DNA of 64,000 nucleotides, taken from assembly GCA_026770705.1 (NCBI GenBank), contig JANJGN010000036.1, positions 1,054,001 through 1,118,000 of the forward strand, written 5' to 3'. How positions within the stretch are numbered: position 1 is the stretch's first letter; each line of letters starts with the position of its first letter. The notes beneath the pieces are model-generated. The model was not told the DNA's origin, searched no databases, and worked only from the letters and a program-made list of their open reading frames with translations. Below are positions 12,801 to 51,128 of the stretch, piece by piece. A program made the translations under genes and the position numbers. The stretch comes from Isurus oxyrinchus (lineage: Eukaryota).

Positions 12801-13943
12801 CTGTGTGGAGATAATCTCAAACCTGTTCCGCATCCATTGCCTTAAAGACTGGAGGAAACAGATTAAATAATAACTTCTCTGAGGGAAACCGGATTATTAT
12901 ATGGATTTTGATGAACGGGATCCTGTTACATGATTATTGGAAAAAGGTGAGATTCATTGAATACCCTCTTTCTCTGCTGTATCACTCTATGATATTAAGA
13001 TGTCAGACAGGAACTTAAGGCGAGCCCAAGAACGTGTTTGTAAGACAAAGTCTCCCTCTCGGACAGAGGAAATCTTTAATTCGGTACAAATTATTAAATG
13101 CACTTTATACATAAATGGTTTACACACATAAACACGTACGTACATAAGTATATATAAAACATATATATTTTATATAGATAGGCAAATGCACACGCACATA
13201 TATAAACATGCGCGCACACACACACATACACCGATATACACGCACACACTCACGGGCACCCACACGCACTCTCTCTCTCACACAAACACATGACCACAAA
13301 CTGACAAATATCTTTATATGTGTCCATTGTTATCAGTTGTCCCGTGAACGTGCTTTAATTAGGAGACAGATTCTTAGCATCGAGTGAATTCCTGCAACTG
13401 ATCCTATGAATTAAAAACCTTCACTGAACAGATCACCAACTCATCTGTCCCTGTCTCTGCTACTTTGGCCCTTAGTCCAATATTTGTTTGGAGACCCCAG
13501 ATGAACGATACAAGTAGAGGGGCCACCGGTTCTCCTGGTTGCAATCAGCACCATGGCGTGACATCTGATGCTCTAGGTTCCATCCGCCTCCCTCGTACCG
13601 GGATTCTGTAAGTGGAGAGATTATAGTTAGATTGTCATTGGTTATTGAGGGATTGGAAGCACTGTCTTGAAAGACATAGAGTAATTTAAGAACAGTGACA
13701 TCATTACCTTTAATTATTCTCAGATTAAGTCTCTCATTTGATTTTCTTCGCCTGAAAAGAGGGACAAGTAAAGAAACTCATAGGATCAGGTGAAATGCCT
13801 TCACCTGTTCACTGGGTAACATTTTAAACTTAGTTAACCATGATTCTGGCAGATTGCAGTTTACCATTCTCATCCGTCTCTTATTCACCACAAACCCGCA
13901 GCACTTGGAAAACAAGTGTCTAATGCAGAGATCCCTTGGACAG
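9895..13943 (-). pseudogene. B1: pseudogene of the B-type V-C1-TM receptor
   Basis: Colinear with B2. Leader 13943-13889 has ATG->CTG and an in-frame TAG. V exon and 5' half of C1 deleted (junction ~13600). C1 remnant ~13445-13600 reads PGTREADGT*SIRCH...STCIVHLGSPNKYWTK. TM remnant ~11673-11775 has donor GT->GA. 31-nt cytoplasmic exon 11544-11574; further remnants at ~11250-11300 and ~9895-9942. Confidence 0.88.
10330..11150 (-). mobile_element. Degenerate CR1-type LINE fragment inside a B1 intron
   Basis: Reverse-strand RT C-terminal decay products (ccgcaccctctctatagctttcacatccttcc, caagttttgtgtaaacagctaat); absent from the corresponding B2 intron. Confidence 0.65.
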
Positions 13944-16080
13944 CTGGACGCGGTGATTTCACACTGTTTTCTCTCTCACCAGTTTGCTACCTCAGGCGGA
14001 GTTGCCGCAGACTGACCTGAGCTCAGTCCCAGTCAGTAACTCCACATTCAGATCCGGTGGAAATATGACAAGCTGTGCTGCTGAAAGTATTAAACTATTT
14101 TGGGTGAGGTGTCCTGGTGAGTGCCACATGCATTAGACATACTGTCGTCACCGTCTGTGTGTCATAGCTGTCAAGTGGTAAAATGCCACTCAAGTTGTCG
14201 CTGGAGGGTGCGGGGTTGGTGGAGGTGGTGGGGCCTGGGTCACAGAAAACTAATTGTATGGATGGGTTCTATATATTGTAGTTAAAGATTACTGAATTCT
14301 GGGCATGTGAGAGCCGTTGGCAAGGCAAGCATGTATTAACCATCCCTGGTTGACTCTTGAGGTGTTGGCGGTGAGCCACCATCTTGAACTGTTGCAGTCC
14401 ATGTGGTGTAGGTGCACCCACAGTGCTGCTAGTCAGGGAGTTACAGGTTTTTGACCCAGTGACAGTGAAGGAACCGCTGTTCTTATCAAGAATGCTTTAT
14501 GGCTGGGAGGGCAACTTGTGCTTGGTGGTGTTCCCAAGTATTTGCTGTCATAATACCTGAAGTTTGTTGGCGTCGCAGATTTGGAATGTGAACACCAAGA
14601 ATTCAGAGTGTTATATCATCGTACTCAGTATAATCAATTTTGTAAACAGTTGTACAAGATTCATGATAAAATCTGGTCAAGACAGAGACTGGAATATATT
14701 GGGTAAAATGTATGTGGACTGGTTTGAATTTTAATTACGAGTATCTCATTCTCTATATCACAAATTACGCAGAGATCTGGACTGGGATTCTAATGAATCA
14801 AGCCGGTCATTCACTGCAATTATCGAGAATCTAAATGAATTCAGTTCCACTCCTTCCGTGCATTGTCCACCTTTCTGTAAAGTCTGATTGAAAAGGTTTT
14901 CGACTGACTTATTCTATAATATAAAACGCCATTTGTGATTGACCGGAATTCAGTTTTCTGAGTTCATTGCCGTATTCTATTTACCAATGATTTATTGATT
15001 GACCCCCTGAAGAGATTTTCAAACAAGCATACATATTGCACTTTGCATTGTGCTCTAAGTGCGTTCACAGTAGTTCAATGGAAAATTAACTGCACAGCTA
15101 ATTTTCCATTGAACTTTGAAATAGCTGTTAAGCTCCTTTGATGTTACAGTTTACACATTTACATAGAATTTTCAGCATAGAAACAAGCTATTTGACCCGA
15201 CTGCTCGTGCTTGCGTTTTTGTTCTGCACGAGCCTCCTCCCTCCCCTTCTTCATCTCAGCATATCCTTGCATTCCCTTCTTCCGCATGTGCTTACCCAGC
15301 TTGCCACTTAAATGCAAATCTGCAAGTGCCTCATCCATTCCCTGTGGGAGTGGGTTCAACATTGTCCCCAACGCCCCAGGAAAGAATATTCTCCTGAATC
15401 CCAGACTGGATTCAACTAATATTAATGGCCCGACATTATAGAGGACCATAGAAATACAGGGCTAGGCCATTGGGCCTTTCGAGCCTGCTACACTATTCAA
15501 TCAGGTCATGGCGGATCTGGTAGTGGTCTTGACTCCACTTTCCTGTTGCCGCCCTTAGGCCTTGGCTTCCTTGCCAAACAAATAACTGTGCAACACGGGG
15601 CTTTGAATACATTCAAAGACTCAGCCGGCACTACATTCCACAGACCAGCTACCCATTGGGTGAATAACAATTCGTCATCTTTTTCTTAAAATGGAGACCT
15701 TTATGTTTGAATTCTACGGGATTCCCGATTGGATTTATTGAAGGCCAATATTGTTGAACACATGCAGAAGTAGAATCATCTTTCTTCAGACTGCCAAAAT
15801 AAACCACTTCACAATTTTTGAAGCATCGACTTAGTTACCCTTCAGTCTTCCCCTTTTTTTAGATTAAAGAGCTCCAGCCGGTTCATTCTTTCCAGATTTT
15901 TATAAGCTCTCAGTTCCTATATCATTCTTGTGAAACATTAACCGTACCCTTTCCAGTGCATCTGTATGCTTTCTAGAATATGCAGAGTTGTGTCCTGCAC
16001 TCCAGCTGTGGTCTAACTAATGTGAGAACAAAGCTGGTGTATTTTGTAAATCAGATGATAAGTGCGTGACAGCACTTGGA

Positions 16081-16275: not shown

Positions 16276-19200
16276 ATGAGCTTCCTTGCTGTGTATGCAT
16301 TGTCCCATCTCTTCCAGGGTGAGATATCTTAACATGTTCACATAGAGTGGAGCAGAGTTGGGATGGTGTAAATAAGGAGAAATTGTTTCCAATAGCAGGA
16401 GACCCGGCAACCAGAGGGACACAGATTGAAGAGAACCGGCAAAAGGACCAGAGGGGTTGGGAGAATGGGGACGAGAATATTTTTTCTTTACCCAATAATT
16501 GCTGTGATCTGGAAGGCTCTGCCTGAAAAGGTGATAGAAGCACATTCAACAGGAAATTTCAAAAGGGAAATTAGATGAGTACTCGATAGGGACACATTTG
16601 CAGGGATATGCGGGATGGCGGGGGGTGGTGGGGGTGTGGGGCTGTGGGGGTGGTGGAGGGGTGTAGTTGATGGGGGGGGGTGCAGAATGCGCGATAGCTG
16701 GATAGATCCCTCAAAGTGCCAGCATTCTGAAGGGCCGAATGGCCGCCGCATGTGCTGCACAGATCTATGAGATGCAATTCAGTTATCAGGTTCAATGCAA
16801 AAATCGAGCGAATATAATCAACAACTTGGGAACTGCATCGGTCAGGAACAATGAATGGAATTAATGGGAAACGTAACGTTCCCTGGAATAGGAGAGGTGA
16901 GTGGCTAGATCGACATTATTGGCGATTGAGAAGAGGACAGAGGTTCAAGTGTATTATTAGAGCGATTTATGATATCTGGAACAAAATAAAAAGCCCAAAT
17001 CTAACAAAGAAGAACAGGAAACGAAGGGAGGATGAGACAAGAAATATAAGAGTTCGAAAATTTAGATTTAAAGCAGTTCTTTTAAGTTATTAACTTCACA
17101 AAGTTCCCATTTGTGTATCCCAGTGTTTATCCCAGATTTACTGGTGATTGGACTCGGACTGTGCCTTGGAATGACAGGAATAGAACGGCGCAAACAACCA
17201 ATTGCGTGCGATTTTTTGATATGAACTATATATATTTTTAATGACCGTGCCTCCTCCCTATCGGGGTGTATTCGTCGGAGGCTAGCTTCGGGAGAGAGGC
17301 TGTGCGGGTGCGGGGTGGCGGATTGCACCCTAATCTGAGGTAACTTGTTTATTTCTGTCTTGCTCAGTTATTATGTCTCAACCCGTCTTGTCCCAGTCTC
17401 CACCGGTTCAGATACTCCCTGCGGGGAGTCGTGCTAAACTGAGCTGCCTCGTGGAGAGCTCAGTGGTTGGCTTCGTCTTGTGGTACAGACAATCGGAGAG
17501 AAACAACATGAAGCTGGTTTACACAGCGAGCAAGTACCTCCCCGCAGAGGGGAGGTTTTCCAGCAAGGCTGGTTGCAAAGTGAATAATTGTTCACTGCTC
17601 ATTGTGGATTCCCGGAGAGAAGATTCTGGAATATATTACTGTGCAATCCGTAATTTCACAAATATGGCCCGAATATTTGGAAATGGCTCCCAGTTAGTGA
17701 TTACAGGTAAATTTCATCATTATTCCATCGAATTGGGTATTTCTACAGCAATTAAAAGTATGTGGTTTGAACTCATAATGGTGTTTCTCTTTCATTTGCC
17801 AAATTTAGAGGGCTCCCCCACCATATTACTCCTCGCCCCGCCAGAGAATGAGATTCCCTCCATGGAAAGTGTCCCGTTGTTATGTTTGATCAGAGGATGG
17901 TCCCCCGATTCCTATTCCGTCCGCTGGAATGTTTCTGGACGGGATTCCGAGGGACAGACCGATTCTGGGACAATTGAGACTGACGGGACCTACACCATCA
18001 GGAGTTACACCAGCCTCTCGGCGGAATCTTGGAGAATTGGCGTTCTCTGTACTTGCACCATTCAAATCAACTCCAGTGAAAATCTTCTCAGTGCAAGTCT
18101 CTCATCTCAGAGAGGTAGCGATTAACAGTGACCGTTTAACAATTTATTTACTGCTGATGGCAGGTGTTGCCAATTTTGTAAATTAGAATTGTTCATTTTT
18201 CCGTGTGTGCCCATGTCGCATCATTTTATCATCGATCTATCATATATCTCTCCATCTTTCAGAGTTAAGCTTTCTGAAATTCTAACTCCATTTGTTCTCT
18301 CTACCTCAGAGGTCTATGGACGCTCTGTCACTGAGAAAGATTTTTGTGCACTAAGGGAATAAGGGATGTGGACAGGGCAGGAAAGTGCATTTAATCTGCA
18401 AGATTAACCATGGTCTTATTGAATGGCGGATCTCTTTGAGGCGCCGAATCATCTCCAGCTCCTATTTCCTGTGTTCTTGTGTCTGTCTAAGCATGGATCC
18501 ATGCTAATGGATCATTTGTCAGTGTGCAAAACTGAAAGGCGTGATTACATTCCCAGTGTACTACTTTGTCTCACCATTCCTGTGTTCAATTATCTATTCA
18601 TATCTCTAACTACTTAACATTCACAATATTCCTGTCTGTCTTAGTTAAGCAGTGAGATATAAAATATCTTCTCTATCCGTGTGTCTATCTGTTTATCTAT
18701 CTATCCATCTCTCTTGCTTCCTATGAAACAATCCATTCCTGTCCTAGTACAATTTAAGATAACTGCGTTATATATTTTTGTGCCTGACTCTCTCTCTCTC
18801 TGAAACCCTCTCATTACCGCTCCCCCTCTCTGTCTCTCCATGTCCCTCTCACTGTTCGCCTCATCACTTTCTCTCTCGCTCTCTGTCTTTATCTATTGAA
18901 AAATGTATTCATTTCTCTATCTATCTCACTCTACCTCTGTTTATCATGTCTATTTCTATAGTAGTTAAATGGTGCGTTATAAGAAATCTGGGACATTCAT
19001 CTATCTTCCCACCTGTCGATCTCTCTCCATCTCTCACCCTCTTTCTGTCTCTCTCTCTGTCTCTTTCGCTCTCTCTTTATCCCTTCTCATCCAGTTAAAA
19101 ATGTTCTATGTTTTATGCTCCATCTGTCACACACTCTTCTTTCTATCTCTAACTATCATGTCTTCATTCATTTCTCCGTCCATCTCTTTGTTCTGCTTCT

Positions 19201-21107
19201 CCCTCCTCTCCTTATCTCCATCTCCCATTTCTTCCTTTCTCCCCCACTCTTTCCAACTCTCCCCCTCCCTCTATCCCTCCCTCCCCATCTCTCCCAGACC
19301 CCAATTCCCGCTCCATCGAACTCTCACTCTCTCCCGTAGCCACCATCACTTCCTCTTTCTCCCCAACTTTCCCTCTCTCCCTTGCTCCCTCTCTGCACAT
19401 CTCTCCCTCTTCTCCTCTCTCCCCACCTCTCCCTCGCTCCCCCATTTTCTCTTTTCGCCCTCTGTCTCCCCAATCTCTCCTTCTATCCATATCTCTGCTC
19501 TCTCCATCTCTACTCCGTAAGTGATCTGCTCTCTGTATCACATTCTGCCCATCTCTCCCTTGCTTAACATTTATTTGCTATTAAAACAGTGCTCTATCTA
19601 CGTCTCCCTGTTATTCTCCCTCTATCTCTCTTTAGTTATCTCTCTTTGTTTGTCCTATTTAAATAGTGTTCCATAAGATCGCTGATCTCTCTCTCGCTTT
19701 CTCTCTCTTTATTTCAGCCTTAATAAACGTGAATTTATCTGTTTGTTTGTCACTCGCTCTCAGTATCCGATTCAAATAGCATTTTAGAGATCTCTTCTCA
19801 TTCTCCCTTTCTGTCTCTCTCTTTCTATCTACAGATATCTACCCTGTTTAAATAGAGCTTTATAAGATCTCTGCTGTCCCTTGCCATAGTCTCTCTATCT
19901 TTGTCTCTATCGCTTCTCTCTTTCAATCTCGTTCTACTTCTGTCCTATTTCAATATTGTTCTGTAAGGTCTCTGCTCCATTTCCAGATAATGAAAGATAT
20001 AAAAATCTATTCACGTCTCCAGGTGAAATCAGGCATCTAATTTGTGATTATTTTCCCCATATGTTTAATTAATTCTGCAAACTTCCTTTTAAAGTAAAGG
20101 GTTTATTTTTTTGCAGATTCTCCACTGTTTACCACCTGCAGCTTCCTGCTTTCCGCGGGTTTGCTGGCGACGGCGCTTCTCCTTGTGGGGGTAATCATTG
20201 TGGCCGGGAGAAGGAGTTGCCAGACCCGGCAGACAGGTAGGGATTTTTGGGAGATGCTGTAACTTCGCGGCGCTCTCAATACATTCATTTATCAATGGGT
20301 TATTGACACTTTCAGCCTTTTCGGATTGAAATGTCCTCATGCTCAGTTCAAATTTTACTTTCTAACAGGAAAAATGAAGAGTAATGAGGAAATGAAAGAT
20401 TGCAGAGAACAACGAGAGAATAAAGAGGTAAAAGAATTGAATTGTTGCCTTAAGCCTGGATACATTTCACAAAATGTTAGTCCTAGGTTTAAATTTCATA
20501 GTTATTGTGATCAATCTAGATAACTTTGCGTCATTGGTAGTACAGGATGGCAGAAAAAAAGCTTCAATTCTTCTCGTGGGGAAGATTAAGGGGTAATTTA
20601 ATCGAGAGTTTTAAAATGATAAAATCATATGATCGTGTCTGTAGAAATAAGCTCTTTGCCCTGGTGGCGCGGTTCTGGTGTTTGTGTGCGGGTTGAGTAG
20701 TAGGTGTTGGCGGGATGGAGTCCAGGACAAGGGTGCAGGACTTTAAAATTATCGGGATGTCATTCAGGGGTGATGTCAGGGTGCACTTTGTCCCACAAAG
20801 GTGAGTGGAAATCTGGAGCTCTCTCTCCTCAAAAGTTGTTGAGGCTGCGGGATCAATTGGAAATGCCAAATCTTAGATTGATAGAATTTTGTTGGGTACG
20901 GGGGTTAAGGATTATGGAACCAAGGTGGAAGTTATGGATGGAAGTTATGATACAGAACCGCCATGTTCTAATTGAATAGAGTGGAGGGGCTGAATGGTCT
21001 CCTGCTATCCCGATGATGATGGTGTTCGTTACATTAATAGATTCGTTTTTTTTTCCCCACAGACGCTTTATGCCCGCTTAGCCTTCAATCAGGATCCCAC
21101 ACTTTGA
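16276..21107 (+). CDS. A1: intact non-rearranging VJ-C1-TM immunoglobulin-superfamily receptor (TCR/IgL-like) with a cytoplasmic TxYxxL motif, ~303 aa
   Basis: Exons: leader 16276-16318 (MSFLAVYALSHLFQ), VJ 17368-17706, C1 17809-18114, TM 20117-20236 (DSPLFTTCSFLLSAGLLATALLLVGVIIVAGRRSCQTRQT), cytoplasmic 20369-20427 (GKMKSNEEMKDCREQRENKE), terminal 21063-21107 (TLYARLAFNQDPTL*). All introns GT-AG, phases 1,1,1,1,0, no stops. Confidence 0.88.
17368..17706 (+). CDS. A1 exon 2: germline-joined V-J Ig domain
   Basis: QPVLSQSP...AKLSC...LWYRQ...GRFS...EDSGIYYCAIRNFTNMARIFGNGSQLVIT: B- and F-strand Cys, WYRQ, DxGxYYC and FGxG all in one exon, no RSS. Confidence 0.93.
17809..18114 (+). CDS. A1 exon 3: C1-set Ig domain
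   Basis: EGSPTILLLAPP...VPLLCLIRGWSPDSYSVRWNVSG...DGTYTIRSYTSLSAESWRIGVLCTCTIQ; acceptor 17807-17808, donor 18115-18116. Confidence 0.92.
18780..19960. repeat. Long CT-rich low-complexity tract in the A1 C1-TM intron
   Basis: Imperfect (CT)n/(TCTA)n; a counterpart occupies the same intron of A2 (~49070-50030). Confidence 0.85.
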
Positions 21108-24308: not shown

Positions 24309-24309
<1 letters not shown>

Positions 24310-24348
<39 letters not shown>

Positions 24349-28020: not shown

Positions 28021-30082
28021 GCCTCTTCTTCCCTATTGCTCATGTTATTGGTTCAAATTTAACCCTCAGCGTTTGACTCCATTAACACGTATTAACCAGT
28101 GGGTGGTCTATTTATATTTTACTGTAGTAGCCGATTCGCCTGAGCGAACATTTTCTCCCTCCCTGCCATAGCAGAATCCATAGTATTTATTATGTACCGC
28201 AGTTATGTATGTACCTCTCAGGCATGTATTACTGTGCAGCTAAAAAGCTCTGTAGGGTGTATTTACGTTTGAAAATGGTTCAAAATTTTTTGTCACTGGT
28301 ATAAATGATGATGTTTTTACAATTGCATTATCAATAACCAGGAAGTTATGGCCAATAGCCATCGAATCTCAAAGCTCGATCCCATCACGTTGTCCAATAA
28401 TCGACCTTTGAACTCCGCCTCCGGCTGATATTCTCTCGATGAGAGTGGACCTTTAGGTTTGTTTGGGGAAGTGCGTGGACCCAGATTCCTTTGCCGCCCA
28501 CTGGAAAGTTTCGGACGGGGTGCCCAGGGACAGAGCAATTCCATGATAATCGAGCCGGACGGGACCTACCCCATCAGGAGTTACATAATCCTCTGGGCGG
28601 AAACTTGGAGCAGCGGCGATCTCCGTCCTTGCGTGTCTCCAAACAACGCAAGTGAAAATCTTCCAAGTGAAAGTACCTTATCTCAAGAAGGTAACTGTTA
28701 ACAGTTTGCTCGTGCATTTAATGTGCGGCCTATTATTTTGTCATATCTCTTTGCACATCTGAGCTTCCCCCTTCAATGTGTTCACGTATCATTTTCAGAG
28801 CCCTTATCCCGCTCTCATGTATCTCAGAATTTCAGAGTTTATCTTTCAGAATTCTTAGTCCATCTGTCTAGTAAGGATAAAATCCCAATTTTCTGTTTAC
28901 CACTTTCCCTCTCGATTCCTATACGACATTATGTGAATCCCATAGGGCAGATCTTCCAGCACTGAGACAGTGCACTCTCCTATTTGGCTCGCTGCTGCTG
29001 TTTCTGCTTCAGAAGAACCTCCTCCCACTCCTCTTCACCTCAGCTCATCACCATGTCCTTCTGCTGCTTCCTCCCTCATGTTCTTATACAGCGTCAACCA
29101 TTAATCCATATCTGCAATTCACCTCAACCGCTGCGTGTGGGAATGTGTTCCACATTGTTCCTGATTAAAGAGTTTCCTCCTGAATTCTCGACTGGATTTA
29201 TTAGTGAATGTGTGACATTGATGGTTTCTAGTTCTGGTCTCCTCAACAAGTGCCAATACCTTTTCTACTTCTGCACGAAAGTCCCTTTTATAATCTTAAA
29301 GATATTGATTAGGTTACCCGACAGACTCCTCTTTTCTCGAAAAAAAGATGACAGCCTGTTCAAACTTTCCTGATTTTCATAACCTCTCATTTCTGGTAAC
29401 ATTCCAGTAAACCCCATCTTTTTCGCTCCGTTCCCTGTGCCTGCATATTCTTTTTATGATATGCAGACCAGGATAATTCAATGGACTCAATGTACAGTCT
29501 AACTAATTTCTAATATACTTTAATGTCGCCTTTTTTCTTTTCATTGCTGGCCCTGGCTTTTATCATCTTATTAACCTCTGTTATTTTTTTCAATGATTTT
29601 TGTCTCGTGCCTCTGAACTCTCTGCTCTTCTGTCCGATTTCAACAGTTATGTTCCATTGATTGTGTAGCCCAAACGCTGTCATATGTCTAACCCGGGCCC
29701 CAACTATTCTTCTTCCTAGATAAATGGTCTCTATATAACGTTTCATCCAAGACAAAGTAAAGGAATCCGTTGGATGACTATAAGCAGGTTAGTCTTTCAT
29801 GCATGGCGGACAAACGTTGAGCAGTTAATTGCTATACATGAAATTTGTGAGTATTTCATAATAGATGGGTTCGTTAAGGGCATTCAGCACCGACCTGTGA
29901 ATGTGTAGTCATGCTTAACACATTCAATAGGGACTGGCCTTTCAAGAATTATCCGAGTGGATAGTTAAATAGAATGCAGTTCATGGGGTTCCACGAGGTC
30001 TTCATGTATTTGTGCTTTATAAATTTATCTAAGTATCCCTCACTCGCACTGGGTCTTCTTTATAACTACCCACGTATTTATG

Positions 30083-30166
<84 letters not shown>
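30083..30166. repeat. (TATC)n microsatellite, ~21 units
   Basis: Perfect tetranucleotide run. Confidence 0.97.
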
Positions 30167-32438
30167 GCTCTATCCAAATACATATCTGTCCATCTATTCT
30201 ATCCATCCGTCTCCCTCTATCATTCTCTCACACGCTGCCTTTGTGACTGTCTTCCTCTATCTAGCCATCCATATAGTTTCAAATTTCCAAATTTGCTTCG
30301 CTTGCCTAATAAATGTCGATTTAAAAAAAATGTGCTTGATGAAGTTGGTGACAGTGACAAGACTGACATTGTTTACCCTTCCCGAGCCGCCATGCGTAGT
30401 GTGTGCTGGAAGTCATTGAATGTTAAGCAAGGGACAAACGGCGCGGGTTTCAGTATTTTTCTGAAATACAATGAGATTCTTCAATTCTTGCTCCCTACCA
30501 CTTGCAGTTCCAATTTTCAGAGATTTCGTCCGAGGCGGGCTTTCTCCTTCAGGGGATGGTTCTTGTGCCCGGGAGAAGGGGTTGCTGGAACCGGCAGTCA
30601 GGGAGAGATTATCAGGAGAAGCTGTAACTCCGCTGCGCTCTCAATGCATCCATTAATCAGTGGGTTTGTGGCAGTTTCAGCTGTTTGCATATGAATTGAT
30701 GTCATTTCAGCTAAGTTTAAATTTCAATTTCTAATAGGCAACATGAACAGTGATGCTGAAATGACATATTCCAGAGCAACGACACAAGAAAATGCGGTTA
30801 CTATGGATGGAATTGTTTCCTAACATGTGCAGATACATTTCACTGCATTTTAATCGAAGTTTTAAAGTCCATTGTTAATGACATATGGATCTAGGCGATT
30901 TTGCATCGTACATATTGCAAGATAACACTGTTTACACGTGATACAACATTATGAAATTACATGAAAAATATAGATAGGTGTTCAATTAAATATATCAAAA
31001 TTGAGATTGATAAGCTTTCGCTGGGTAAAGGGGATTAACCGTTAGGGAACGTAGGAGAGGAGATGGGGTTAAGATACAGATCAGAAAAGACGTTATTGTA
31101 AGACAGAACATGCTCGAAGGGCTGAATGGACTCCTGATGATGGTAAGCTCACTATAACCATTTGTGTTTTCTCTTACAGACTGTTTTTGCTCGGCTGGCG
31201 TTGAATGCGGATCCCACAGTCTGATTGCAAACGATATTGAGAACTCAAGTTCTGCTTCTGGGCTATGAAGTGTAGTGGAAAATTTCCTCTCTTGTGATCT
31301 TATTGGAGGAACGCCTAGAGGTGTGACCCTTTCCAAGAGACAGCCATGGCAAATTATGTTCATGGCTGAATTATTATTTATTAATAAAAATGAGCAATGT
31401 AGCATGCCGACTAGTCACCTACTGCTGAGTCCTCAATTCTGAAAGAACAGGTCCTTTTTCAAGCCCAAATTGACTCTCTGGAGTTTTAGCTTTGGGCTCA
31501 GTATCAATATGTTTCTACTGTCCTGTGGCAGTGTTTTTATGTTCATTCTGCATCTTTGTGTAGCGCTTGAGCAGGAAAGAGCGCATTAGTGTCCAAGTTA
31601 GCAATCCATTAAACACGTTTTGAAATGCAAACACTGTTTGGGACTTCAGGCTGTTTGGCCCCTCAGTGCAGTTGTGCTCAGTGAATCTGCAATAGCAGGG
31701 TACAGGATATCTTTATAGGACATATGTTTGCAGGTTAAACGTGGGACCATTTCAACGAGAATGATACCAGAGCTAAGAGGTTATGATGCCGGGGAAGATT
31801 GAACAGTCGGGGCCTCTTTTCTCCCCAAAAAAGAAGACTAAGTGGTGACCTGATGAAGATATTTCAAATTATGAAACGATTTGATACGTGGAAGCAGAGA
31901 GAGAATGCTACCAGTTGCAGGCAGAGCTACAGCAAAGGCCATGAACATTAGATATTTGCTAATAATTCCATTGGGGAATTCAGGAATAATTGCTTTCCCA
32001 GGAGAAAGGGGAGAATACAGAACTCACCACCACAGTGTGCGGTCGAGGGAATATCAGAGATGCAATTAATGGGGAAGCTGGACAACTTCGTCATGAATAA
32101 AGACATAGGAGGACATATTGATGGGGTGAGGGTGTTGGAGGAGGGTCGTCTGAAGCACAAACACCAGCAGAGAGCAGAGCGGCTGAATAGCTTGTTTCTG
32201 CTCCTGAAATGATTTTGAATTTTGTAAAGCAGAACACATAAGCAGTGACTGAAAGCTCTTTGTTTGGAAAAAGTTTGCATCATTAACACAATTCCTTCTT
32301 CACACTAAAATAAGTAACTAAATGTGAAAGTGGGATTCAGCGGACCGAGGTGATCTGATATTTTTGTGTTACACCTTCAAGATTATAAATATTAAAAATT
32401 AAGGTTTGAAACCACTGCTTTTAAGCAGTGTTACATGG

Positions 32439-35401: not shown

Positions 35402-38400
35402 TCATCTGCGACCCCCTTTCTTTTTTGACCTTTTCTCCAATGCAGCCAAGTCCAGTGAGGCGTAGAGAGGTCCGCCTTGAGTCTGGGAGACATTTTAAAC
35501 ATCAACAACGAAAAGTCTTTTAACGATAGGTAAGATTGCCCACTCCCGCAACTGCATTTTATAGAATCATTGGCTGATACAGCGCAGAAAGAAGTAATTC
35601 CACCGATTGTTTAAGTGCTAGCCCTAAGAAAGAGCTGTGCAATTAGTCCCATTGTACTCTTCACTGTCCCCATATCGCTGCCACTATTTTCACTTTCCAC
35701 TATTTTTGTATTACCTTTTTGAAAGTTGCTACTGAATCGGTTCCTGTTGCCCGCTTTCTCAATTTGAGGAAAGTTTTGCTGCATTATAAACTACAAGAAA
35801 CATCTGAATTGAAGTTTTCTAACATCGCTGCAGAATTCGCAAAGAAACTGGAAATAACCGAAGTTTAATCAGAAAACTGGGTGATGAGTGTATTGATTTG
35901 ATTGAATTCCTTTGTTGTTAATTGGCCAACCCGATTATTGTGTTTCGCCATGTGTCATCTATACAATTATGTAGAGTCCACTAAACTGATCACATTTAGA
36001 AGAATGACACAAACAGAATCAAAAGCTTTGTGTTTTTGTCGCGCCTTTCACGAACTGAAGAAGCCCCAGAACATTCAGATCCACCTCTTTGAAGTATAGT
36101 CTCTGTTCTTGATGCAATGAGGCAGTGAATTTACGTATAGTAAGTACCGATAAACAGCAATGAATTAATGACTTGGATAATTTATTTTTAAGGTGCGGGT
36201 TGAGAGATAAATTATGAAACGGGAAACCAGAGAGAAGACCCCACCCACCGCACCCACCATCCCCCATGGCCCCAACACCATTCATCTTGCAATAATGGCA
36301 GTACCATCTTTCATGTCGACCAGAGCGGTCTAGCAGGTCCTCGGTTTAACGATTCATTTGAATTAGACACCTCAGGGAATGCAGCACTCGCTCCGGACGT
36401 TCAGTCTAGACCTTCTNNNNNNNNNNNNNNNNNNNNNNNNNNNNNNNNNNNNNNNNNNNNNNNNNNNNNNNNNNNNNNNNNNNNNNNNNNNNNNNNNNNN
36501 NNNNNNNNNNNNNNNNNNNNNNNNNNNNNNNNNNNNNNNNNNNNNNNNNNNNNNNNNNNNNNNNNNNNNNNNNNNNNNNNNNNNNNNNNNNNNNNNNNNN
36601 NNNNNNNNNNNNNNNNNNNNNNNNNNNNNNNNNNNTTGCAGTGAACTTACAGCAGAAGCAGATTTAGCCTACGTTTGGCCTGACCTTCATTCTAATTCCA
36701 TTTGCTAATGTGTTTACTAAATTGGTTGGGTCGGAGGAGGGGCAAAGTTGTTAAACGAGGGAAGGGGATTAGACTCACTGTAGAGATTAAAGAAAATAGC
36801 ACAAATCTAAAATATGCACTGCTGGAAATACGCCATTAAATTTGATGGAGACATTCCACCTGGAAAATGGCCCTATCCTTTCTGTTGTCAGATGGGGAAA
36901 GGGATTGGGGAATATTTTCTGATTCCAGTTCGAGGGACGAGTGGGATTATATACAAATTCAGATGCTCTAGACTATGACCTGCCTTGTGATAAATGCGTG
37001 AAATATTTAGGATGGGAAGCCTTGCACCGTATCCCCCCAAAAATTGTATGCTATTGCAACAATTTCAAAGCAACTTACTTGTACTGCATCCTGACACGGC
37101 CACGATCCATCTCTTTGATGGTGGTCATCTGTGTTATTAATGGTTGAGATAGGAATTGAAATGTTATCCCAGACTGGCTTATTCATAATTATTACAGATA
37201 CGTCATTCGCCGAAGATATGCCGAAGCACCAATGACTCCAGTAAGCCTCTTTGTGACCAGGCCCCGAGTCCGTAGAATGTGCCCCAAAACGCGAAAGTTC
37301 CCTCAAAACTTCAGTGGTGTGAAAATCGCCAATGGATGGACAATCACTCTCCACCCACATTGCCTGGCATATATTGTCTTTCTGGCATATTACTGCAACT
37401 ATTAACAACCAGGAATTGGCATTTTATATGGAAACCAGAGACAGCAGAGTGGTTGAGAATATTATTGATGGCGGGAAATGCTCTTCTGTATCTTTCCAAT
37501 TCCAAGGACTTGACATTTAATCTGTGCCAAAATTTCGATGCAACTTACCCGTTTGTCGCTCATTGTGACCTTCTCTTTGTCTTCTCTCCCTCAAGCTGAA
37601 GCTGGATGTGAACAGAATTATCAAACACGTGTTATATTTTATGAATACTGGCGCAGGTGCCAGAAATAGGCGAGAAGAGAATGTCAAGTGGTCTTAGAAT
37701 CAATCTTAAATGCTCACGGAAAATGGCAGCATATATCATTGGAATCAGTGTTGGGGTTGAACTGGGCTAGGTCCAGTGATAAATATAGAACGTGGGTTCA
37801 GGGTGAACTTTTGAAATGTTCAGTTACTCACGTTTCATTGTGGGATCTTTTGCAAGGCTCTCCTGAAAGCAGAAAGTAAATTATCAATTTAAAACTGGAA
37901 GGGAATCATTTGAGACAATCATTTATTAAAATATCACTGAAGATTATTAATCCTCACCTGATCTGCCGCTTTTACGAATCCAAATTGAAATGAGGACCAG
38001 GAGCAGAACCAGTATCACCAGGACAGTTATGATAACAGGAAGGGCCAGCATGCACCATCCTACAGAGACAAAACACTTAGAAACTGCTACTCGATGAAAT
38101 CAACCTATTCTGGTACTGTCTGATGGGAAACGTGCCCCAAAATTATGCCCAGAAGCAGTCCATTTGTATCATCGTGCTAGTGCATGCTCTTTGAGAGCGG
38201 AACCTAATTAGTGATATTCTCCCTGCCCTTTCTCCCATACGCCTGAAAGTGTCTTTCCATTAGTTATTTATCCAATTTCCCTTTTAAACGTTCCTTTTGA
38301 ATCTGCTTCCAACGCCGTCTCAGGAGGCGCTCTCCAGGCACCATTCACTGAGTTAAAAGAGAATTTCCCTCATCTCCCCTGCTAGTTCCTTTGCGATTAT

Positions 38401-40189
38401 CTTCAATCTGTGTCCCTCTGGTTACTGACCCTCCTGCCAGTGGAAACCGTTTCTCCATGTTTATCCTGTCGAAAAATCTCATGATTTTGAACACCTCGCT
38501 TAAGTCTCCCCCTCATCCCTTTCTGCTCTATGGAGAACACTACCAGATTCTACAGTCTCTCCACATTTACTGAAGTCCCTCATCCCTGGTCCTATTCTGG
38601 TGAATCTTCTGTACCCTCCCCAAAGCATTTGTCCCTGTTTTCTGCTTATAAATTGCATGCAGTGTGAACTGACCTCAATTTCATTCCAACATCCACTGCC
38701 TAAACAGTGGGGCGGATGTAGATTCGGCATTAACTTTTGGAAGAGAAATCAGATTTTAACTTGAAGAGGAAAATGTGGAAGTGTTGTGTAGAAACGGTAG
38801 ATCCAATGGGATAACGCTTACAAAGAGGTAGCACTGGCACAATGGGCAGAAGTCGCTCTTTGCTCATCTATCGTTCTAGGATTCGACGATGTGACCGAGA
38901 AATATAAGGCAAGTCGGGAAATTGTTTACAAGGGAAAGTCTACACATGGGGCTAAGGTAACACTAACTTATTTTTTATCAAATTTAGAATATATATATTT
39001 ATAGCTTGCTTTACAGTTGCAGCTCCCAACAATAAATCAATTTCTCCAATTGACTCTAAAGTCGCATAAAAGCCTCCATTGAACACATCGCCTGCTCACC
39101 TCCCTCTGACTCTGCTGCTTTGGAGAACGGAAAACTCTTTGTCCAATATTTGCGTGGAGACCCCAATTGAACAATACAGGTACAGAGACCGCCGCTTCTC
39201 CAGGTTTCCCTCGACACCACGACGTGACTTCTGATACTGTAGGTCCCATCCGCCTCCATTGTACCGGGATCGCTCGGCCCCTCAGTGACCACGCCGGAAA
39301 TATTCCAGATAATAACAATCTGGTTGGAAGAAACTCCACTGACCAAACACACTAAGGGGACGGTTTCCCTCAAATGCAGCTCACCCGGCGGGACAAACAC
39401 CAGCACAGCCGTCTTGTTGGTGGAACTGTCTGGACAGAGATTGGGAGATATCTACGATTCGTTTGCTCCAAATGATAATTATGTGCATGATCTCAATTAA
39501 TTTCACTTGCTCTCTTACCTCCAACCAGTAGTCTTGGTCCATTTTGGAGCGGCGCATTGCTATCCCTATGAGCACTGTAATAGGAACCCGAGTCATTCAC
39601 CTGGAGATTGCGAATTTCCAGAATCAATTGAAGTTTGTTGTGGCCTTCTTTGGAAATAAACTTACAATTGGCCCCCTGACAGGACTGGGTGTCGATTAGT
39701 ATCGGGGCTTCATCCACACGTTGTTTGTACCAGAAATAACTAGAGACCAATTCCACTTCGTAAAAGTAACGAGAGGTTAATTCCACCGTCTTTCCGACTT
39801 CAGCTGTCATTATGAAGGGGATCGGAGACAGAGAGAGCTCGGATTCTGTAACAAGATAGATTATTGTTACATCACTATCACTTATTGGGAGATTGTAAGC
39901 AGCCGCTATGAAGGACTTCGCCTGTAATATTAAAGTAGTCACATCATTGCCTTTAATTATTGGTGTTTAGATTAATTCTGCAATTTGAATCCTTCGCTTT
40001 CTCGGAGGGAAGACTAAATAAAATCACAGGATCAGGTAAAATCGCTGTACCTAGCCACTAGGTCGTATTTTCAGCTTAGTAAACATTGATTTTGGCTGAT
40101 TTCGCTTTAACTTTCTCACCCTCCTCTTACTCACCATAAAGCTGCAGCATTTGGAAAATGAATATCAGAGATAAAGATCCCTTCGACAT
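35402..40189 (-). CDS. B2: open-frame non-rearranging V(J)-C1-TM immunoglobulin-superfamily receptor with a terminal LYASL motif, ~342 aa
   Basis: Exons (minus): leader 40189-40135 (MSKGSLSLIFIFQMLQLY), V 39845-39519, C1 39429-39100, TM 38059-37958 (GWCMLALPVIITVLVILVLLLVLISIWIRKSGRS), cytoplasmic 37862-37832, 37601-37549, 37128-37079, terminal 35482-35402 (TQGGPLYASLDLAALEKRSKKKGGRR*). All GT-AG, phases 1,1,1,1,2,1,0, total 1029 nt, no stops. An assembly gap lies in the last intron. Confidence 0.8.
36417..36635. other. Assembly gap (N run)
   Basis: 219 N. Confidence 1.
39100..39429 (-). CDS. B2 exon 3: C1-set Ig domain
   Basis: DSSTNKTAVLVFVPP...VPLVCLVSGVSSNQIVIIWNISG...EADGTYSIRSHVVVSRETWRSGGLCTCIVQ; clearly homologous to the A1 C1 domain. 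Confidence 0.92.
39519..39845 (-). CDS. B2 exon 2: V-set Ig domain with a J-like end, canonical Cys absent
   Basis: AEVGKTVELTS...YFWYKQRVDEAPILI...LILEIRNLQVNDSGSYYSAHRDSNAPLQNGPRLLVG. Confidence 0.88.
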
Positions 40190-42439: not shown

Positions 42440-43015
42440 GTTAAGATGAATGTTTCTCCCAGTTCACATCAAGTTTCCGCCCATCAGTATTCTCCTGAAG
42501 ATTCCTTGGCATGGATCCCTGTGTTGACTTGTAGAGAATGTGCAGCGCTGGTTTGTTACTTTTACTAGATAATTGGCTCAAGTTTGCCATGAGGGAGTCC
42601 CATAAAATAATCATTTGACCCAGCAGCATTTATTAAGTAATTTGTCTCCGTTGGCGTGGGTGCATTTTGATCCTTTACCACAACTGTCACCATTATCTAG
42701 GGCCAACTCTTCGTCCTCATTCGTATTTGGATTCATTAAAGCGGCAGCTCTGGTGATTATTGATGTTTAACAGGGACTGCTCAATAAGCGTGTGCTAATA
42801 TGCTCGCTTTTAAATACTGATTTCAGTTTCTCGTTTCAGAAACCCGAATGAATATATGCCAAAAGGAACAGCGTCAACCATTTTGTCAAATTTATCGCTA
42901 ACAATCTCGCTGTATTCATCACTGTGTCAAACCAGTTCAACCGAAACGCGCATTGCAATTGTATAGATATTATAATATTTTCCAAGTTCTTTTCAGATTG
43001 ATTCTGAGACCCATG
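42440..43015 (+). pseudogene. B3: inverted remnant of a B-type gene (pre-TM intron, TM exon, following introns)
   Basis: ~42652-42752 gtcctcattcgtatttggattcattaaagcggcagctctg|gtga matches the B2 TM exon end gtcctcatttcaatttggattcgtaaaagcggcagatcag|gtga; the flanks match reverse complements of 11780-11970 and 37690-37780. Confidence 0.75.
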
Positions 43016-45410: not shown

Positions 45411-47959
45411 TGCTCTGGAATATGTGGGTCAGGGTTTATCAGTTTAAATTGGTGATAACCCAGAACATTTGGATGCCCCTAAAGTCAATTTCCAGGAGTG
45501 ATGTTGAGTTTGATTGATAGGGAATTCTGGGAAAGTACTGATCAATTTCCTGCTCTTTGTTGAAGGTGAGAAAGAATGAAAATTGAGAGAGTGTATAAGA
45601 GTGGAATGCATCATTCATGCCACATACAAAATATCTTCCAAAGTTAAAATGTCTTAATTTCAAAATATTTATTCATAGGATATGGGCATCGCTGACAAGC
45701 AAGCATTTGTTTCCCATTCCCAGTTCTACTTCAGAAGCCGCTTTCTTGAGCCATGACAACCCCTGTGGTGAAGTTGGTCCACAAATCCATTAGATCAAGA
45801 ATTCCAGGATTTTTACCGATAGACAAAGGAGGGAATATGTGTTGTTGTTGTGCAACTTACAGATCGTGGTGCCCCCTGCTGCCCGTGTCATTTGAGGTGG
45901 TAGAGGTTGCAGGTTTGGAATGTGTTGTCAAAAGGGGTCTTGGCGAGTCGCTCATCTCGTGGATGCTACACACTGCAGTCACTGTGCGTTTTTACTGGTG
46001 AAGTTGAATATTTGAGTTTTTGGATGTGATGTTGCTCAAGCAGACTCGCCCAAGGACAGCCTGGGTGCCAAACCCACATCCTCGAGAAAGATTGAAATAA
46101 GCAACATTGACATAACTGACCATCAGAAAACACACATTTTCCCATCAGAAAACACACATTTTCTGTCTGATGGGCGACAAATTAAATTGAGCTTATTTTA
46201 CACTCTCTGAATGTTCAAATGATCATCAACTTCACTCCTGCAGAGAACTGATCGAAACAATGAATGGCTGGATAACTAACCTCCCGTTAACTGGGTACCA
46301 TATGAAGTGGGGAAATAGGAAGATTTAATCTCCCGTTTGGACTGAGTTAACTGTCCTCAGTGGAGGTCAGAAAATCTAATCAGTTCGTTAGGGGGTTGAA
46401 GTACCTCAGAGAGCCACATAATATTTTGAAAGACATTGAACAACACTGTACTTTATCGCAAAGTGGAATAGCCATGTTATGTACCTCAGATTTTTTTCTT
46501 AATAAAGTTGATGTTTTGGAAAACTAAAGTATTACTCAGTCTACTGCCCTTTGTCGCCCTATGGAACGGTAGTTGGTGTTTACCTCAATGTGCATCCCAT
46601 AGGCCACAGAGCCATGAATCCCGGAAAAGATATTGACAGAACACCCTGCACCACTTACCACAGTTGCTTCACAAAAGCACATTGCAGCAGTTAATCTACC
46701 CTGGTTTCCATTTTATCAGAGAACGATCCTTTTTGTTCATTGCTTTGCTTCCCACATCCTGTGTGATACTTGTAGAGTGTGTAACATTTTCGAGCTCTGA
46801 TCTAGGCTCATTGACCTGAAGCATTAATCAGTGACATTCATGGAAAGGCATGGAGTTAGTGAGTTTCCTGTTAGGCAAAGTATTGTCTTGTAAATATCAG
46901 CAGCAATTATGTATCTAGTGGATAACATAGAGTACTGGAAGACAGTAATTTGGTTTGCTTCTTCTGCAATGTCAGATTTTAAGGGCCGTGTAATGCGCTT
47001 TTATGAATTTTCATGAATGAAGTATGTTTAGGAAAAAATAAAGACTTGTCTGAAAATATCTCAGCCCTGACAAAGCCTCATGTCCCCCGGCTCCCAAAGT
47101 TTGCAAAACGATTTGAAGTTTTACACCGGGTTTTGCTTATGGGTTTTGAGTTCATTGAAACATTGCCAACTTCTCTAAATCCTCGCTGGAGAAACGTACC
47201 AGGTTTACTCCAATTGAAAGGGTCAGTTAATGAAAAACTGGCAGTTTGGCCGCAGCCTGGCCGCTGAAGTTTTGAAATTGCAACGCAAATGCGTTGGGTT
47301 CTTTTGCAAATCCTGTCTCCTCCACAATTCATCAGAGAGAATCCATCCAGATTCTCATCTACCAACCGCCTCCGTTTTTGATCTCTTTTTTAACGCAGCA
47401 GGAAGGCGGAGAGAGGTCTTCCCAGAGACTTGGTAATATATTAAAGATTAATATTAAAGATTGGTAAATCACAGGTCAGATTATCCCTCCAAAACTTATC
47501 AAAGTCGTTCCAGTTTTTTTTTCTCTGTGAGCCCCGTTAAGCAATGCTCACTTCTATCTTCAGGCTGAACATGTGGCTGCGTTGATGTTGCCACCATTTG
47601 ACTTTGATTACATTTAACTCCTCCCTCTTGGTGAATACCTGAAGATTTCCCTCTGCTTGTGCAGTAGCGTCGATCGGCCAGAGGAGGGTGGAATTGTACC
47701 ATTTTCACCACAAGTTCGAATAACAGGTTTTCGGAGTGGATGAATTGGCCCTTATTAATTAATTCAGTCACCCAGAGACAAAAGATCACACTTTGAAACC
47801 ATCCTTGCTTCTTCTGACATCACATTAGATATTTTACTCTCAACGCAAAATAAGTTCCGGAACTGATATTTCACGTTGTTGTCCCTGGAATTATTTCTCT
47901 CCTTACGTGTTTATCTCAGCTTCTTTAGAGCGTTAATGTTGAAAGCAACAGCTGCGCCA

Positions 47960-48164
47960 ATAACACACACACAGCGAAGCACACACACACACGCAGACCA
48001 ACACAGACACATACGCATAGACACAATAACACACACACAAAAATAGCGCCCCCCCCCAAACACACACACAGACATACTCACAGACACAGCGAAACACGTG
48101 CAGACACAGACGCACACAGCGACACAAACAAACACCGACATATACAGACACACACACAGCGATA

Positions 48165-48204
<40 letters not shown>

Positions 48205-48245
48205 CATTCAAACCGCGACAAAAATAGACATGCACACACACAGCG
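47960..48245. repeat. Imperfect (CA)n tract
   Basis: Direct reading. Confidence 0.9.
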
Positions 48246-48380
48246 CAGAGATGCGCATGAACTCTCATAATCTGTGTGTTCTGTTTCCCGATTGTCCAGC
48301 CAATGGGAATTGCTTCTCTGATTCACACTGTTTAGAATCGTACAATGTTTACGGCACGGACAGCGGCCACTCGGCCCACC

Positions 48381-51128
48381 GTGGACGGGACCTATACCAT
48401 CAGGAATTACACTAGCTTCGTGGCAGAAACATGGAGCAGCGGCGCTCTCTGTACTTGCGCCGTTCAAATCAACTCCATTGAATATATTCTCATGAAAGTG
48501 TCTCATCGCAGAGAGGTAGCTATTAAAAGTGACCATTCACCCATCGATTTAATGCTGATTGGAGTCTTTGTCGATGTTGTAAATCAGAATTGCCTGTGTT
48601 TCCGTGTGTGTCCATGGGTCATAATTTTATCATTGACCTATCATAGACCTGTCAATCTTTCAGAGTTTAGCTTTCTGAAACTTTTACTCCATCTGTTCTC
48701 TCTGCCCCGGAGAGCTATCGGATGTTCAGTCACTGAGGAAGATTTTTGTACACAAAGGGATGTGGACAGTTCGGGAATGTAAAGTTGCTTTACAAGATTA
48801 GCTATGGTCTTACTGAACCTGCTTCGAGGGACCGAAGGTTCTCGTGCCCCTTTTTATTGAGTTCCTGTGTCTATGTAGCAATATTGACATGGTTGTATGC
48901 CACTTGATAGTTTGCCAGTTTATAAAATTGAAAGGCGTGGTGACATTCCCAGTGTACCTCTTTGTCTCATCATGCCTCTATACGATTATAGATTCATCTC
49001 TCTATCACTTTGTCATGTACAAAATTCCTGTCGGTCTCACTTGAACAGTGAGGTACAAGATATTTTCTACATCTGTCTGCCTATCTGTTTATCTGTCTCT
49101 CCATCTCCCTCTCTCTGTCTTTCTGGGTCTGTCTTTCTCTTCTCTCTCTCTCTTTCTCTATACATCAATCTATTGCTACCCTAGAACATTTTAATATATT
49201 TGCCCCATCTGTCTGTCTTTCTGAGTCTCTGTCTCTCATCCTCTCTCTGACTTCCTCCCTCTCTCCTGCGACTCTCTTTCTCTGTCTCTGTCTGCCACTC
49301 TCTTTGTGTTAGTCTGTCACTTTCGATCTGCCTCATTCTCTGTCTCCATTGATTTATTTATTGATCTCTGTATATATCTACCTTTCTCTCTCTCTGATTA
49401 ACTTATCTTTTTTACTGTGGTTAAATGGTGCTGTATATGACACCAATTCCATTTATCTATCTACTAATCTCTCTCTCGCTCTCTCCATAACTCTCTTTTT
49501 CTCTCTCTTTCTCTGTCTCCCTCTTCCTCGCAGCCTCTCATTCTTGCTCCCTGCCTCTCTCTGTCTTTGTATCTCGTTCTCTCTTGCCATCCTATTCTCT
49601 CCCATTTAAACAGTTCTGTAAAATCTGTCAGCTCTTTCTATTACAGTACTTTCATCTCACTCTCTCTCTCCATCTATCTGTCTACACAACCCTCTATCCT
49701 GCTCTCTCTGTACCCCAGCTCCCTCTATTTCAATCCAGTTTGAACAATGTGCTCTCTCTCCTTCTTTGTCTGCCTCTTTCTCTCTTCCATTATGTATCTC
49801 TCCAACTAACGATTTCTCTATGTCTTTCATTTACAGTTAATCTGTTTGGTATCATATACCTGTTTTCTCGATCAGTCTCTCCACCTCCCTCTATCTTACT
49901 AGTTATGCAGTGTTTGAACAGTGGTCTCTGCCATCTCATGCTATCCATCTCTCCATCTCTCTCTCACTCTATTTCTCCTTCTTATTTGTTTCTATTTCTA
50001 CTTGTGCCCTGTTTCAACATTGCTCTGTAAGATGTCTGCTCTATTTTAGGTTCATGAAGCATGCAAAAAAAAAGTCTATATCTGTTTTCAGGTGAAATAA
50101 GATATTTAATTGGTAATATTTATCTTATTCAATTAATTCCACAATAATTTTTAAATGGGAATTTTATGTATTTTTGCATATTCTCTGCTCCCGACCACCT
50201 GCAATTTCCCACTTTCCAGGAGTTTTTCAGCGGTGGCGCTTCTCCTTCTGGGGATGATCCTTGTGACCAGGAGAAGCAGCTGCAGGAACCGGCAGACAGG
50301 TAGCCATCGTTGGAGACGCTGTAACTCCGCGGTGCTCTCAATCCATCTATTTATCAATAGGTTATTTACACTTTCAGCCGGTTCACTGTGAAATGTAGCC
50401 ATTTATGCTCCGTTCAATTTCTACTTTCTAACAGGAAGCATGAACATTGATGAGGAACTGACTGATTCCAGAGAACAATGAAGGAATAAAGAGGTAAAAT
50501 ACTGGAAATTCTTGTTGCCACTGCGCGTGAATGCTTCTCACTCATTTTTAATCCAAGGTTTATATTTCATAGCTATTGTTATGTAAGTCTGGAAAATGTT
50601 GCATAGTGAGAACAACAGGATAGCAAAAACAAGTGTTCAATTCCTCGAGTGCAAAAGATTAAGAGGTGATCTAACCGAGGGCTAAAGGATACGATAGCGT
50701 TAATGGAGAGAAACTATTTCCTATGGGGAGGCTGGGCGGATGGAATCCAGAATAAGAGGCAGAAAGTTGACATTAGAACAGCTCGTTCAGGGCTGATATC
50801 AGGAAGCGCTTCTACGCTCAAAACCGAGTGGAAATCTGGAACTCTCTGCCCGGAGAAGCTGTTGAGATTGCCAGATCAATTGGAAATGTCAAAACTGAGA
50901 TTGGTAGATTGTTGTTGCATAAGGGGCTTAAGGATTATGGAACCAGGTTGGGTACATGGGAGTTATGATACAGATACTCCATGATGTAATTGAACAGACT
51001 GGAAGGGCTGAATGACCTCCTCCTATCCCTATGATGGTGGTGTTTGTTGTAGTAAGAGTTTATGTCTTTATTTTCCCCCACAGACACTTTATGCCCACTT
51101 GGCCTTCAGGGAGGATTCCACACTCTGA
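48381..51128 (+). pseudogene. A2: 5'-truncated pseudogene of the A-type receptor
   Basis: C1 3' half 48381-48515 (VDGTYTIRNYTSFVAETWSSGALCTCAVQINS); TM exon 50180-50299 with acceptor AG->AT; cytoplasmic exon 50435-50493 with premature TGA; terminal exon 51084-51128 TLYAHLAFREDSTL*. V and 5' C1 missing; a LINE-tail fragment abuts the break. Confidence 0.9.

Follow-up and report, generated by a model that had tools for sequence, protein, structure and literature searches.

The A and B genes of the window and their ancestry

The stretch of DNA examined here (the window; 64,000 bp of the shark Isurus oxyrinchus, positions 1,054,001 to 1,118,000 of contig JANJGN010000036.1, hereafter C36) is a 64-kb part of an array of about 3.5 Mb, composed of non-rearranging genes encoding a leader, a joined variable-joining (VJ) domain, a C1-set constant domain, a transmembrane (TM) segment and a tail with a tyrosine motif. 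Two types of these genes are present in the window, designated A (plus strand) and B (minus strand). A preliminary description proposed that a cassette containing both types was duplicated, and that one copy retained A (A1) and the other B (B2), a pattern that would fit selection for obligate 1:1 partners but that, with two cassettes, could also be due to chance.

Gene A1 (16276-21107, plus strand) is open and consists of six exons separated by GT-AG introns: leader (16276-16318), VJ (17368-17706), C1 (17809-18114), TM (20117-20236) and two tail exons (20369-20427 and 21063-21107), the last of which ends with TLYARL. The V domain carries a derived CxxxxC motif in its D-E loop (17573-17590). 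The 102-nt intron between V and C1 (17707-17808) is in frame and stop-free, and the two exons form a single open frame of 263 codons; frames of 257-263 codons spanning V and C1 occur in many A paralogues. The facing gene, B1 (minus strand), is dead. Its leader exon (13889-13943) has CTG in place of ATG and an in-frame TAG, and a deletion of about 575 nt at a shared ATCC removed V and half of C1, leaving the V acceptor plus 5 nt fused to the second half of C1 (13430-13605). The TM and first tail exons (11252-11775) are broken by a GA donor of the TM exon and a frameshift.

Gene B2 (35402-40189, minus strand) is open and contains eight exons: leader (40135-40189), VJ (39519-39845), C1 (39100-39429), TM (37958-38059) and four tail exons (37832-37862, 37549-37601, 37079-37128 and 35402-35482, the product ending with PLYASL...GGRR). 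Both canonical cysteines of its V domain are replaced by serine, as in two sister copies; 13 aligned homologues of B2, named or unnamed, retain both. The place of a facing A gene is occupied by an inverted B-type TM fragment (42683-42764, plus strand). A2 (48384-51128, plus strand) is dead: the leader and V are missing along with half of C1, and what is left comprises the 3′ part of C1, a TM exon whose acceptor (50180) reads AT, a first tail exon with TGA, and a last exon encoding TLYAHL. The preliminary description had thus recognized correctly the state of all four genes.

The inclusion of B2 and A2 in one cassette, a duplicate of that of B1 and A1, does not hold. The interval between them contains, besides the inverted TM fragment (42,707, plus strand), the last-exon remnant of another B gene (47350-47451, minus strand), and A2 starts 8 kb from the B2 leader, behind a mosaic junction (47978-48383) that is built of a CA repeat and filler and cuts A2 inside C1. 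Positions 1-47,977 of the window share 93-95% identity with C36:1196-1240k, and positions 48,384-64,000 share 91-94% identity with C36:962-978k; each side of the junction is 5-9% away from its best match in the annotated DNA and is therefore a distinct sequence. Since the homologue of A2 at 962k keeps its V exon, that of A2 was removed by the junction. A2 and the three sister copies (962k, 992k and 1130k) are all leaderless (4/4) and share the AT acceptor (4/4), and a dead B lies opposite each of the three sisters, which indicates that A2 was dead, together with its own B, before it came to adjoin B2. Judging from the junction and these shared lesions, A2 is not the cassette partner of B2.

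The A-less region upstream of B2 recurs, at 65-85% identity, in many solo B genes, so the loss of the facing A is old; in the unit copy at 700-760k, the next A gene past the sister of B2 is open. The deletion junction of B1 is identical in all V-less B copies that have a C1 remnant (8/8), and it must have preceded the loss of the start codon, since the copy of B1 at 708k keeps ATG.

The longest collinear homology within the window relates 17.9-35.4 kb to 48.4-64 kb, and this register aligns A1, relic C1 and B2 with A2, relic C2 and B3. In this register the first copy retains both A and B and the second loses both. Relic C1 (a gene label, not the domain; 28190-31224, plus strand) is a dead A-type gene with a V fragment, a broken C1 exon, TM and tail, and relic C2 (likewise a gene label; 56001-57374, plus strand) is a dead A-type gene with a stop and an insertion in V and a frameshifted C1 exon. 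B3 is represented by its last exon (63946-64000, minus strand); the gene runs on beyond the window, without V and C1. The relics at 28.2-31.2 kb and 56.0-57.4 kb, B3 and the cysteine loss of B2 are additions to the preliminary description. In the sister unit at 1208-1235k, the A and the B gene alike carry a single stop in V.

Reciprocal loss after cassette duplication implies duplicate cassettes with a dead A facing a live B; what was found is a B2 that faces no A and an A2 that died in a unit whose own B was dead as well. Local reciprocal loss, selected for a 1:1 relation, is rejected on this junction and clade analysis together with the count table given below, and the claim of selected loss in two cassettes is an illusion created by the size of the window.

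Survival of A and B genes across the array

Searches of the shark's own genome with the A and B domains (150 candidates scored per search) placed the array at about 0.58 to 4.11 Mb of C36, limits which are lower bounds. Template annotation covered 1,958,158 bases of the array, i.e. the contiguous region 578-1285 kb and stretches around matches. This analysis revealed 220 copies, live and dead, that retain V or C1; about 215 of them lie outside the window. The frame is open through leader, V, C1 and TM in 35 of 55 main A genes, in 10 of 13 members of a divergent A subfamily (D) and in 26 of 99 B genes, but in none of 53 leaderless A-type relics; in total, 71 of about 220 copies are open. A2 was tallied as a relic, B remnants without V or C1 (e.g. 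B3) stand outside the 99 B genes, and the pseudogene counts are lower bounds.

All 55 main A genes are arranged head-to-head with a B gene or its remnant. Both members are open in 4 of these couples, A only in 31, B only in 1 and neither in 19 (odds ratio 2.45, p 0.64; one-sided p for a negative association 0.91), and the inclusion of A2 alters nothing. After collapse by clade, the four counts are 3/13/1/16, with p 0.34. Among the 32 pairs of tail-to-tail neighbours (4/13/5/10, p 0.70) co-retention is not seen, and as a general rule it left no signal (p 0.62-1.0). Open A genes are no closer to open B genes than in 3000 shuffles (p 0.40), nor is the local A/B balance by bins better than in 3000 shuffles (p 0.31). 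The ratio of open main A to B copies is 35:26 (p 0.31 versus 1:1), that with D included 45:26 (p 0.03), and that of fully open genes 41:20 (p 0.01); counted as lineages at 97% identity, it is 24:17. Intact A and B genes therefore display neither a negative association within cassettes nor a strict 1:1 copy ratio.

Several observations concern particular parts of the array. The V domains of the D subfamily (C36 1.69-3.72 Mb, e.g. 1925293-1930432) are 36-40% identical to that of A1; none of its members has a facing B, and in several of them the tail tyrosine is gone (TLDARL). At C36 2315-2324k and 3238-3247k, a facing A and B keep V, C1 and TM, and the tails of both are frameshifted; such a couple would give a dimer without inhibitory motifs. 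Long blocks at about 2.05-2.34 Mb, 2.98-3.27 Mb and 3.72-3.88 Mb contain genes that are 0-5 coding changes apart; either segmental duplication took place very recently, or these are duplicated haplotypes.

Other elements were identified in the first part of the window. A frameshifted constant exon resembling that of immunoglobulin (Ig) light chains is located at 4558-4870 (plus strand), accompanied by a J-like remnant and a site resembling a 12-spacer recombination signal sequence (RSS) near 2499-2560. There are 15 copies similar to this exon, all within C36 0.70-3.69 Mb and 12 of them beyond the annotated DNA, and light-chain pieces appear to be interspersed within the non-rearranging array. 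An orphan A-type leader exon (5628-5670, plus strand) lies at a fragment resembling a long interspersed nuclear element, and no V exon was found behind it. A 143-nt direct repeat (9323-9465 and 10493-10635; 99% identity) is much younger than the duplications around it.

Selection, transcripts and predicted pairing

The ratio of non-synonymous to synonymous substitution rates (dN/dS) was calculated from disjoint close pairs of the first annotation (55 A and 82 B rows). For open genes it is 0.59, both in A (13 pairs) and in B (9 pairs), and for dead genes 0.91 in A (4 pairs) and 0.93 in B (19 pairs); the pooled difference between open and dead is significant (p 0.004). Purifying selection acts on the open genes and is absent from the dead ones. 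B2 compared with its sisters gives 0.42 (p 0.03) and 0.58 (p 0.03), and A1 compared with its own 0.46 (p 0.015) and 0.54 (p 0.006). Branch values, obtained from pairwise counts by three-point subtraction without a codon model, are about 3 synonymous versus 2 non-synonymous changes for B2, and 6.5 versus 14.5 for A1 (dN/dS 0.70). The probability that the frame survived neutrally since the older split is 0.03 for B2 and 0.001 for A1, and since the recent split 0.19 and 0.11. It is unlikely, in view of dN/dS and frame survival, that B2 is a neutral pseudogene-in-waiting over leader, V, C1 and TM; the preliminary description had left this point to a dN/dS analysis, which shows B2 to be under purifying selection. 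The V domain is an exception, since its values (0.80 and 1.16) are based on few changes, and the constraint is established for the four parts together and not for V by itself. In five of six loops resembling complementarity-determining regions (CDRs), dN/dS is 0.86-2.65, versus 0.44-0.53 in the framework, the pairs used being non-independent.

Transcription was traced in sequencing runs taken to be RNA by guess, in which depth and absence carry no information. In one public run, a 179-nt contig, 4 differences away from B2, splices the end of a B-type C1 exon to the TM exon. Over the same length the nearest paralogues differ from B2 at 8 and 15 positions and the rest at 25 or more, so the contig derives from the subclade of B2. 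In a second presumed RNA run, a contig connects an A-type TM exon with two tail exons, spliced at the GT-AG sites that had been predicted; with 13 differences in 229, it is not assignable to A1. A contig from a third run covers 148 nt of the A1 V exon with 7 differences. The runs may come from a related species, because the DNA runs of the same source contain just 0.35-0.37 of the words of B2. Splicing is thus supported for the B2 subclade.

The domain composition of the products was examined with Pfam, which recognized V-set and C1-set domains in A1 and a C1-set domain in B2; the V-set of B2 scored 23.6 bits, under the 26-bit cut-off. In structure models, the V domains of A1 and B2 both fold as Ig V domains. 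The A1 model (predicted local distance difference test, pLDDT, 87.5) matches best the V domains of T-cell receptor (TCR) alpha chains (TM-score 0.86, 24% identity). VJ is a single germline exon (339 nt in A1, 327 nt in B2), and the open V exons contain no RSS-like site. The J motif of all open A genes (35/35) reads FGxG, and that of all open B genes (26/26) is degenerate (LQNG type). Among the open genes, a tail motif of the YxxL/V/I type is encoded by 29 of 35 A and by 20 of 26 B (TLYARL in A1, PLYASL in B2), and a stalk cysteine by 35/35 and 25/26, respectively. Charged residues are absent from the TM segment, delimited by a rough window, in 26 of 35 open A and 24 of 26 open B genes.

Of the open B genes, 19 of 26 encode both canonical V cysteines; the remaining seven, from several lineages, lack at least one. 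All 26 contain a family-specific CxxxxC motif in the C′-D region, which may make the canonical V disulfide of B dispensable. In one triplicated unit (the window; C36:712k/734k; 1212k/1234k), A gained the CxxxxC motif of the D-E loop (2/35 open A) and B lost both canonical V cysteines (2/26 open B); the dead third copy of this A has a stop at the first position of the motif. The two changes possibly reflect a co-evolved specialised pair, or they are a coincidence.

The pairing of A and B was modelled using the ectodomains of an A and a B protein of the basking shark (P0002 and P0017), the nearest spliced stand-ins. The complex scored 0.65, versus 0.01 for the best control, with contacts agreeing by at least 85% between runs and a pLDDT of the partners of at least 77, and stalk cysteines 237 and 240 are both among the modelled interface residues. 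Among microbial pairs, 51 of 78 solved and 2 of 108 mismatched ones reach the pairing mark used; among eukaryotic pairs, 71 of 105 solved and 2 of 126 unrelated ones do so. Likeness to an antibody Fab fragment or a TCR can by itself yield such a pass, and the model is silent on which A binds which B. The idea that A and B are partners is moderately supported by this model, by the stalk cysteine of both chains and by the non-neutral evolution of B2; a strict 1:1 relation is not supported.

Origin of the pattern and relation to known systems

It is probable that the window is a piece of a mosaic array, in which a living A beside a dead B and a living B beside a dead A are products of ordinary birth-and-death evolution. 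The ancestral unit was a head-to-head B/A couple followed by a trailing A-type gene, amplified many times. An old event gave rise to a class of solo B genes without a facing A, to which B2 belongs. Copies have died and been shuffled, the open ones remaining constrained, with variable loops. B1 was killed by the old deletion inherited by 8 copies, and A2 descends from a clade in which A and its facing B were already dead, having been placed behind B2 by the V-removing junction. The A and B proteins may form TCR-like heterodimers that meet at V-V and C1-C1 faces and are linked by a disulfide of the stalk, and their tail tyrosine motifs may signal by phosphatase recruitment, with a probably inhibitory effect, by analogy to receptors with immunoreceptor tyrosine-based inhibitory or switch motifs (ITIM and ITSM). 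If partners are drawn from the whole array, no single neighbour need be kept, and the A/B pattern of the window is likely one accidental arrangement.

Several results weigh against this interpretation. The head-to-head table, with just 5 open facing B genes, gives a test of low power. Open lineages counted at 93% identity are near 1:1 (16 A and 1 D versus 17 B). The array is also skewed: a dead B lies opposite 31 of the 35 open A genes, and 21 of the 26 open B genes are solo. B is open in 5 of 50 cases when it faces an A, versus 21 of 49 when solo (raw p 2e-4), and pure chance predicts no such skew. After collapse by identity, which splits dead genes into extra clades, the p value is 0.002-0.07; with the deaths of facing B genes grouped as 11-18 events, it is 0.07-0.33. 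Furthermore, the data come from a single genome, in which the junction at 48 kb is known from the assembly sequence. Neither the skew nor the near-1:1 lineage count is separable from shared ancestry in the present data.

These results may be read in two other ways. If the 1:1 idea is shifted from two cassettes to the whole locus, surplus B genes supplied by the solo class would be free, or even pushed, to die, and the totals of A and B would be balanced by dosage. The 17:17 and 24:17 lineage counts, a main A to B ratio compatible with 1:1, the modelled dimer and the joint death of A and B by single stops in the 1208-1235k unit (n=1) agree with such a balance. It is nevertheless unlikely, as 1:1 is rejected both with D included and for fully open genes, just 19 of 26 open B genes have both canonical V cysteines, local balance is lacking and there is no negative association within cassettes. 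A literature search at the level of listings gave nothing pertinent on dosage balance in such arrays. Alternatively, promoter sharing between head-to-head genes would fix the pairs, and the death of facing B genes, together with solo B genes, would have been selected because it frees the combination of A with B, yielding germline combinatorial diversity without RAG. Such uncoupling would account for the skew, for the about a dozen different lesions that killed facing B genes, for the elevated dN/dS of the loops (0.9-2.7 in five of six) relative to the framework and for open V exons devoid of RSS-like sites. However, the skew loses significance when deaths are grouped by event, both facing genes are kept in four lineages, and shared promoters, clonal expression and promiscuous pairing are assumed; this reading is improbable. 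An artefact of assembly, whereby the 48-kb junction and the near-identical blocks (2.05-2.34 versus 2.98-3.27 Mb) would be mis-joins or duplicated haplotypes, is suggested by the CA repeat in the junction and by several gene pairs only 0-2 coding changes apart. It is very improbable, given the 5-9% distance of each side of the junction from its best match and the fact that the conclusions are unchanged after near-identical copies are collapsed; a mis-join would likewise mean that A2 is not the partner of B2.

Birth-and-death evolution is thus the preferred explanation, and the locus is of greater importance than the claim of reciprocal loss, since it provides a paired, TCR-shaped type of VJ-C1 gene with about 70 open copies and variable CDR-like loops. 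Dosage balance and combinatorial pairing can both be tested directly on this array. There is a slim chance that selection did break the head-to-head couples and that 35-45 A and about 26 B chains combine freely into a RAG-independent repertoire; if so, dimers on the order of 900-1200 would be available, and the array would be a present-day model for combinatorial diversity as it was before V(D)J recombination. Non-rearranging VJ-C1 genes are considered, in the available parts of PMC10751288 and PMC12227049, candidates for the gene that was split by the RAG transposon.

The nearest named proteins are from sharks, those of the basking shark being 61-65% identical over V-C of A1 and 70-78% over V of B2. 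The homologues are labelled "Ig light chain-like" (automatic NCBI names) or "uncharacterized", and more distant relatives sharing the layout occur in rays, turtles, a caecilian and a sturgeon. In a tree of C1 domains, shark and ray B genes are grouped (91/97), as are turtle and caecilian genes (91/81), the deeper forks being left open.

KIR, Ly49, NITR and CHIR genes form birth-and-death arrays with many pseudogenes, shuffled units, inhibitory tails and variable loops. The shark array resembles them in being tandem, in its pseudogenes and shuffled units, and in the inhibitory-type tails and variable loops of A and B; it differs in having two chains that likely pair and a head-to-head couple as the ancestral unit. 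An account of such a shark array is absent from the literature searched, which is weak evidence, as three key papers are outside its coverage.

The layout of A and B (V, C1, stalk cysteine, TM) is also that of TCR alpha/beta and Ig light chains. In contrast to these, V and J of A and B are in one exon without RSS, most TM segments are uncharged and the tail has its own tyrosine motif; a rearranging Ig/TCR locus is ruled out for A and B, as there are no separate RSS-flanked V and J segments. UrIg and UrIg2 of elasmobranchs likewise have a single-exon VJ with C1 and do not rearrange, according to the available part of PMC12227049. The secreted UrIg contains 3 C1 domains and UrIg2 at least 9, and both are homodimers encoded by one gene each (same source, to the same extent), whereas A and B have one C1 exon and tails with tyrosine motifs; the term ITIM is absent from that paper. 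The identification of A and B with UrIg or UrIg2 was rejected, as one C1 exon is present where three or more would be required.

The closest resemblance in domain layout is to PRARP and other VJ-C1 genes, which share with A and B a joined VJ exon, one V-set and one C1-set domain, a TM segment and an ITIM/ITSM-like motif. A study of 2019 reportedly described PRARP as two chicken genes with a joined VJ exon, C1, TM and a cytoplasmic tyrosine motif, whose products are said to form disulfide-linked homo- or heterodimers; VJC1 genes are said to have been treated by Ohta et al. in the same year. The shark array differs from PRARP in its about 220 copies over 3.5 Mb, 71 of them open and mostly apart from a facing partner. 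No named PRARP sequence was found among the database matches to A and B. In the parts available, PRARP is cited as a non-rearranging VJ gene in PMC10751288 and is listed among joined-VJ genes in PMC11599192; the supplement of the former does not mention PRARP, VJC1 or VJ-C1. A and B fit the non-rearranging VJ-C1 class as named in the available part of PMC10751288. Within this class, on the features reported for PRARP, it is likely that they belong with PRARP in particular.

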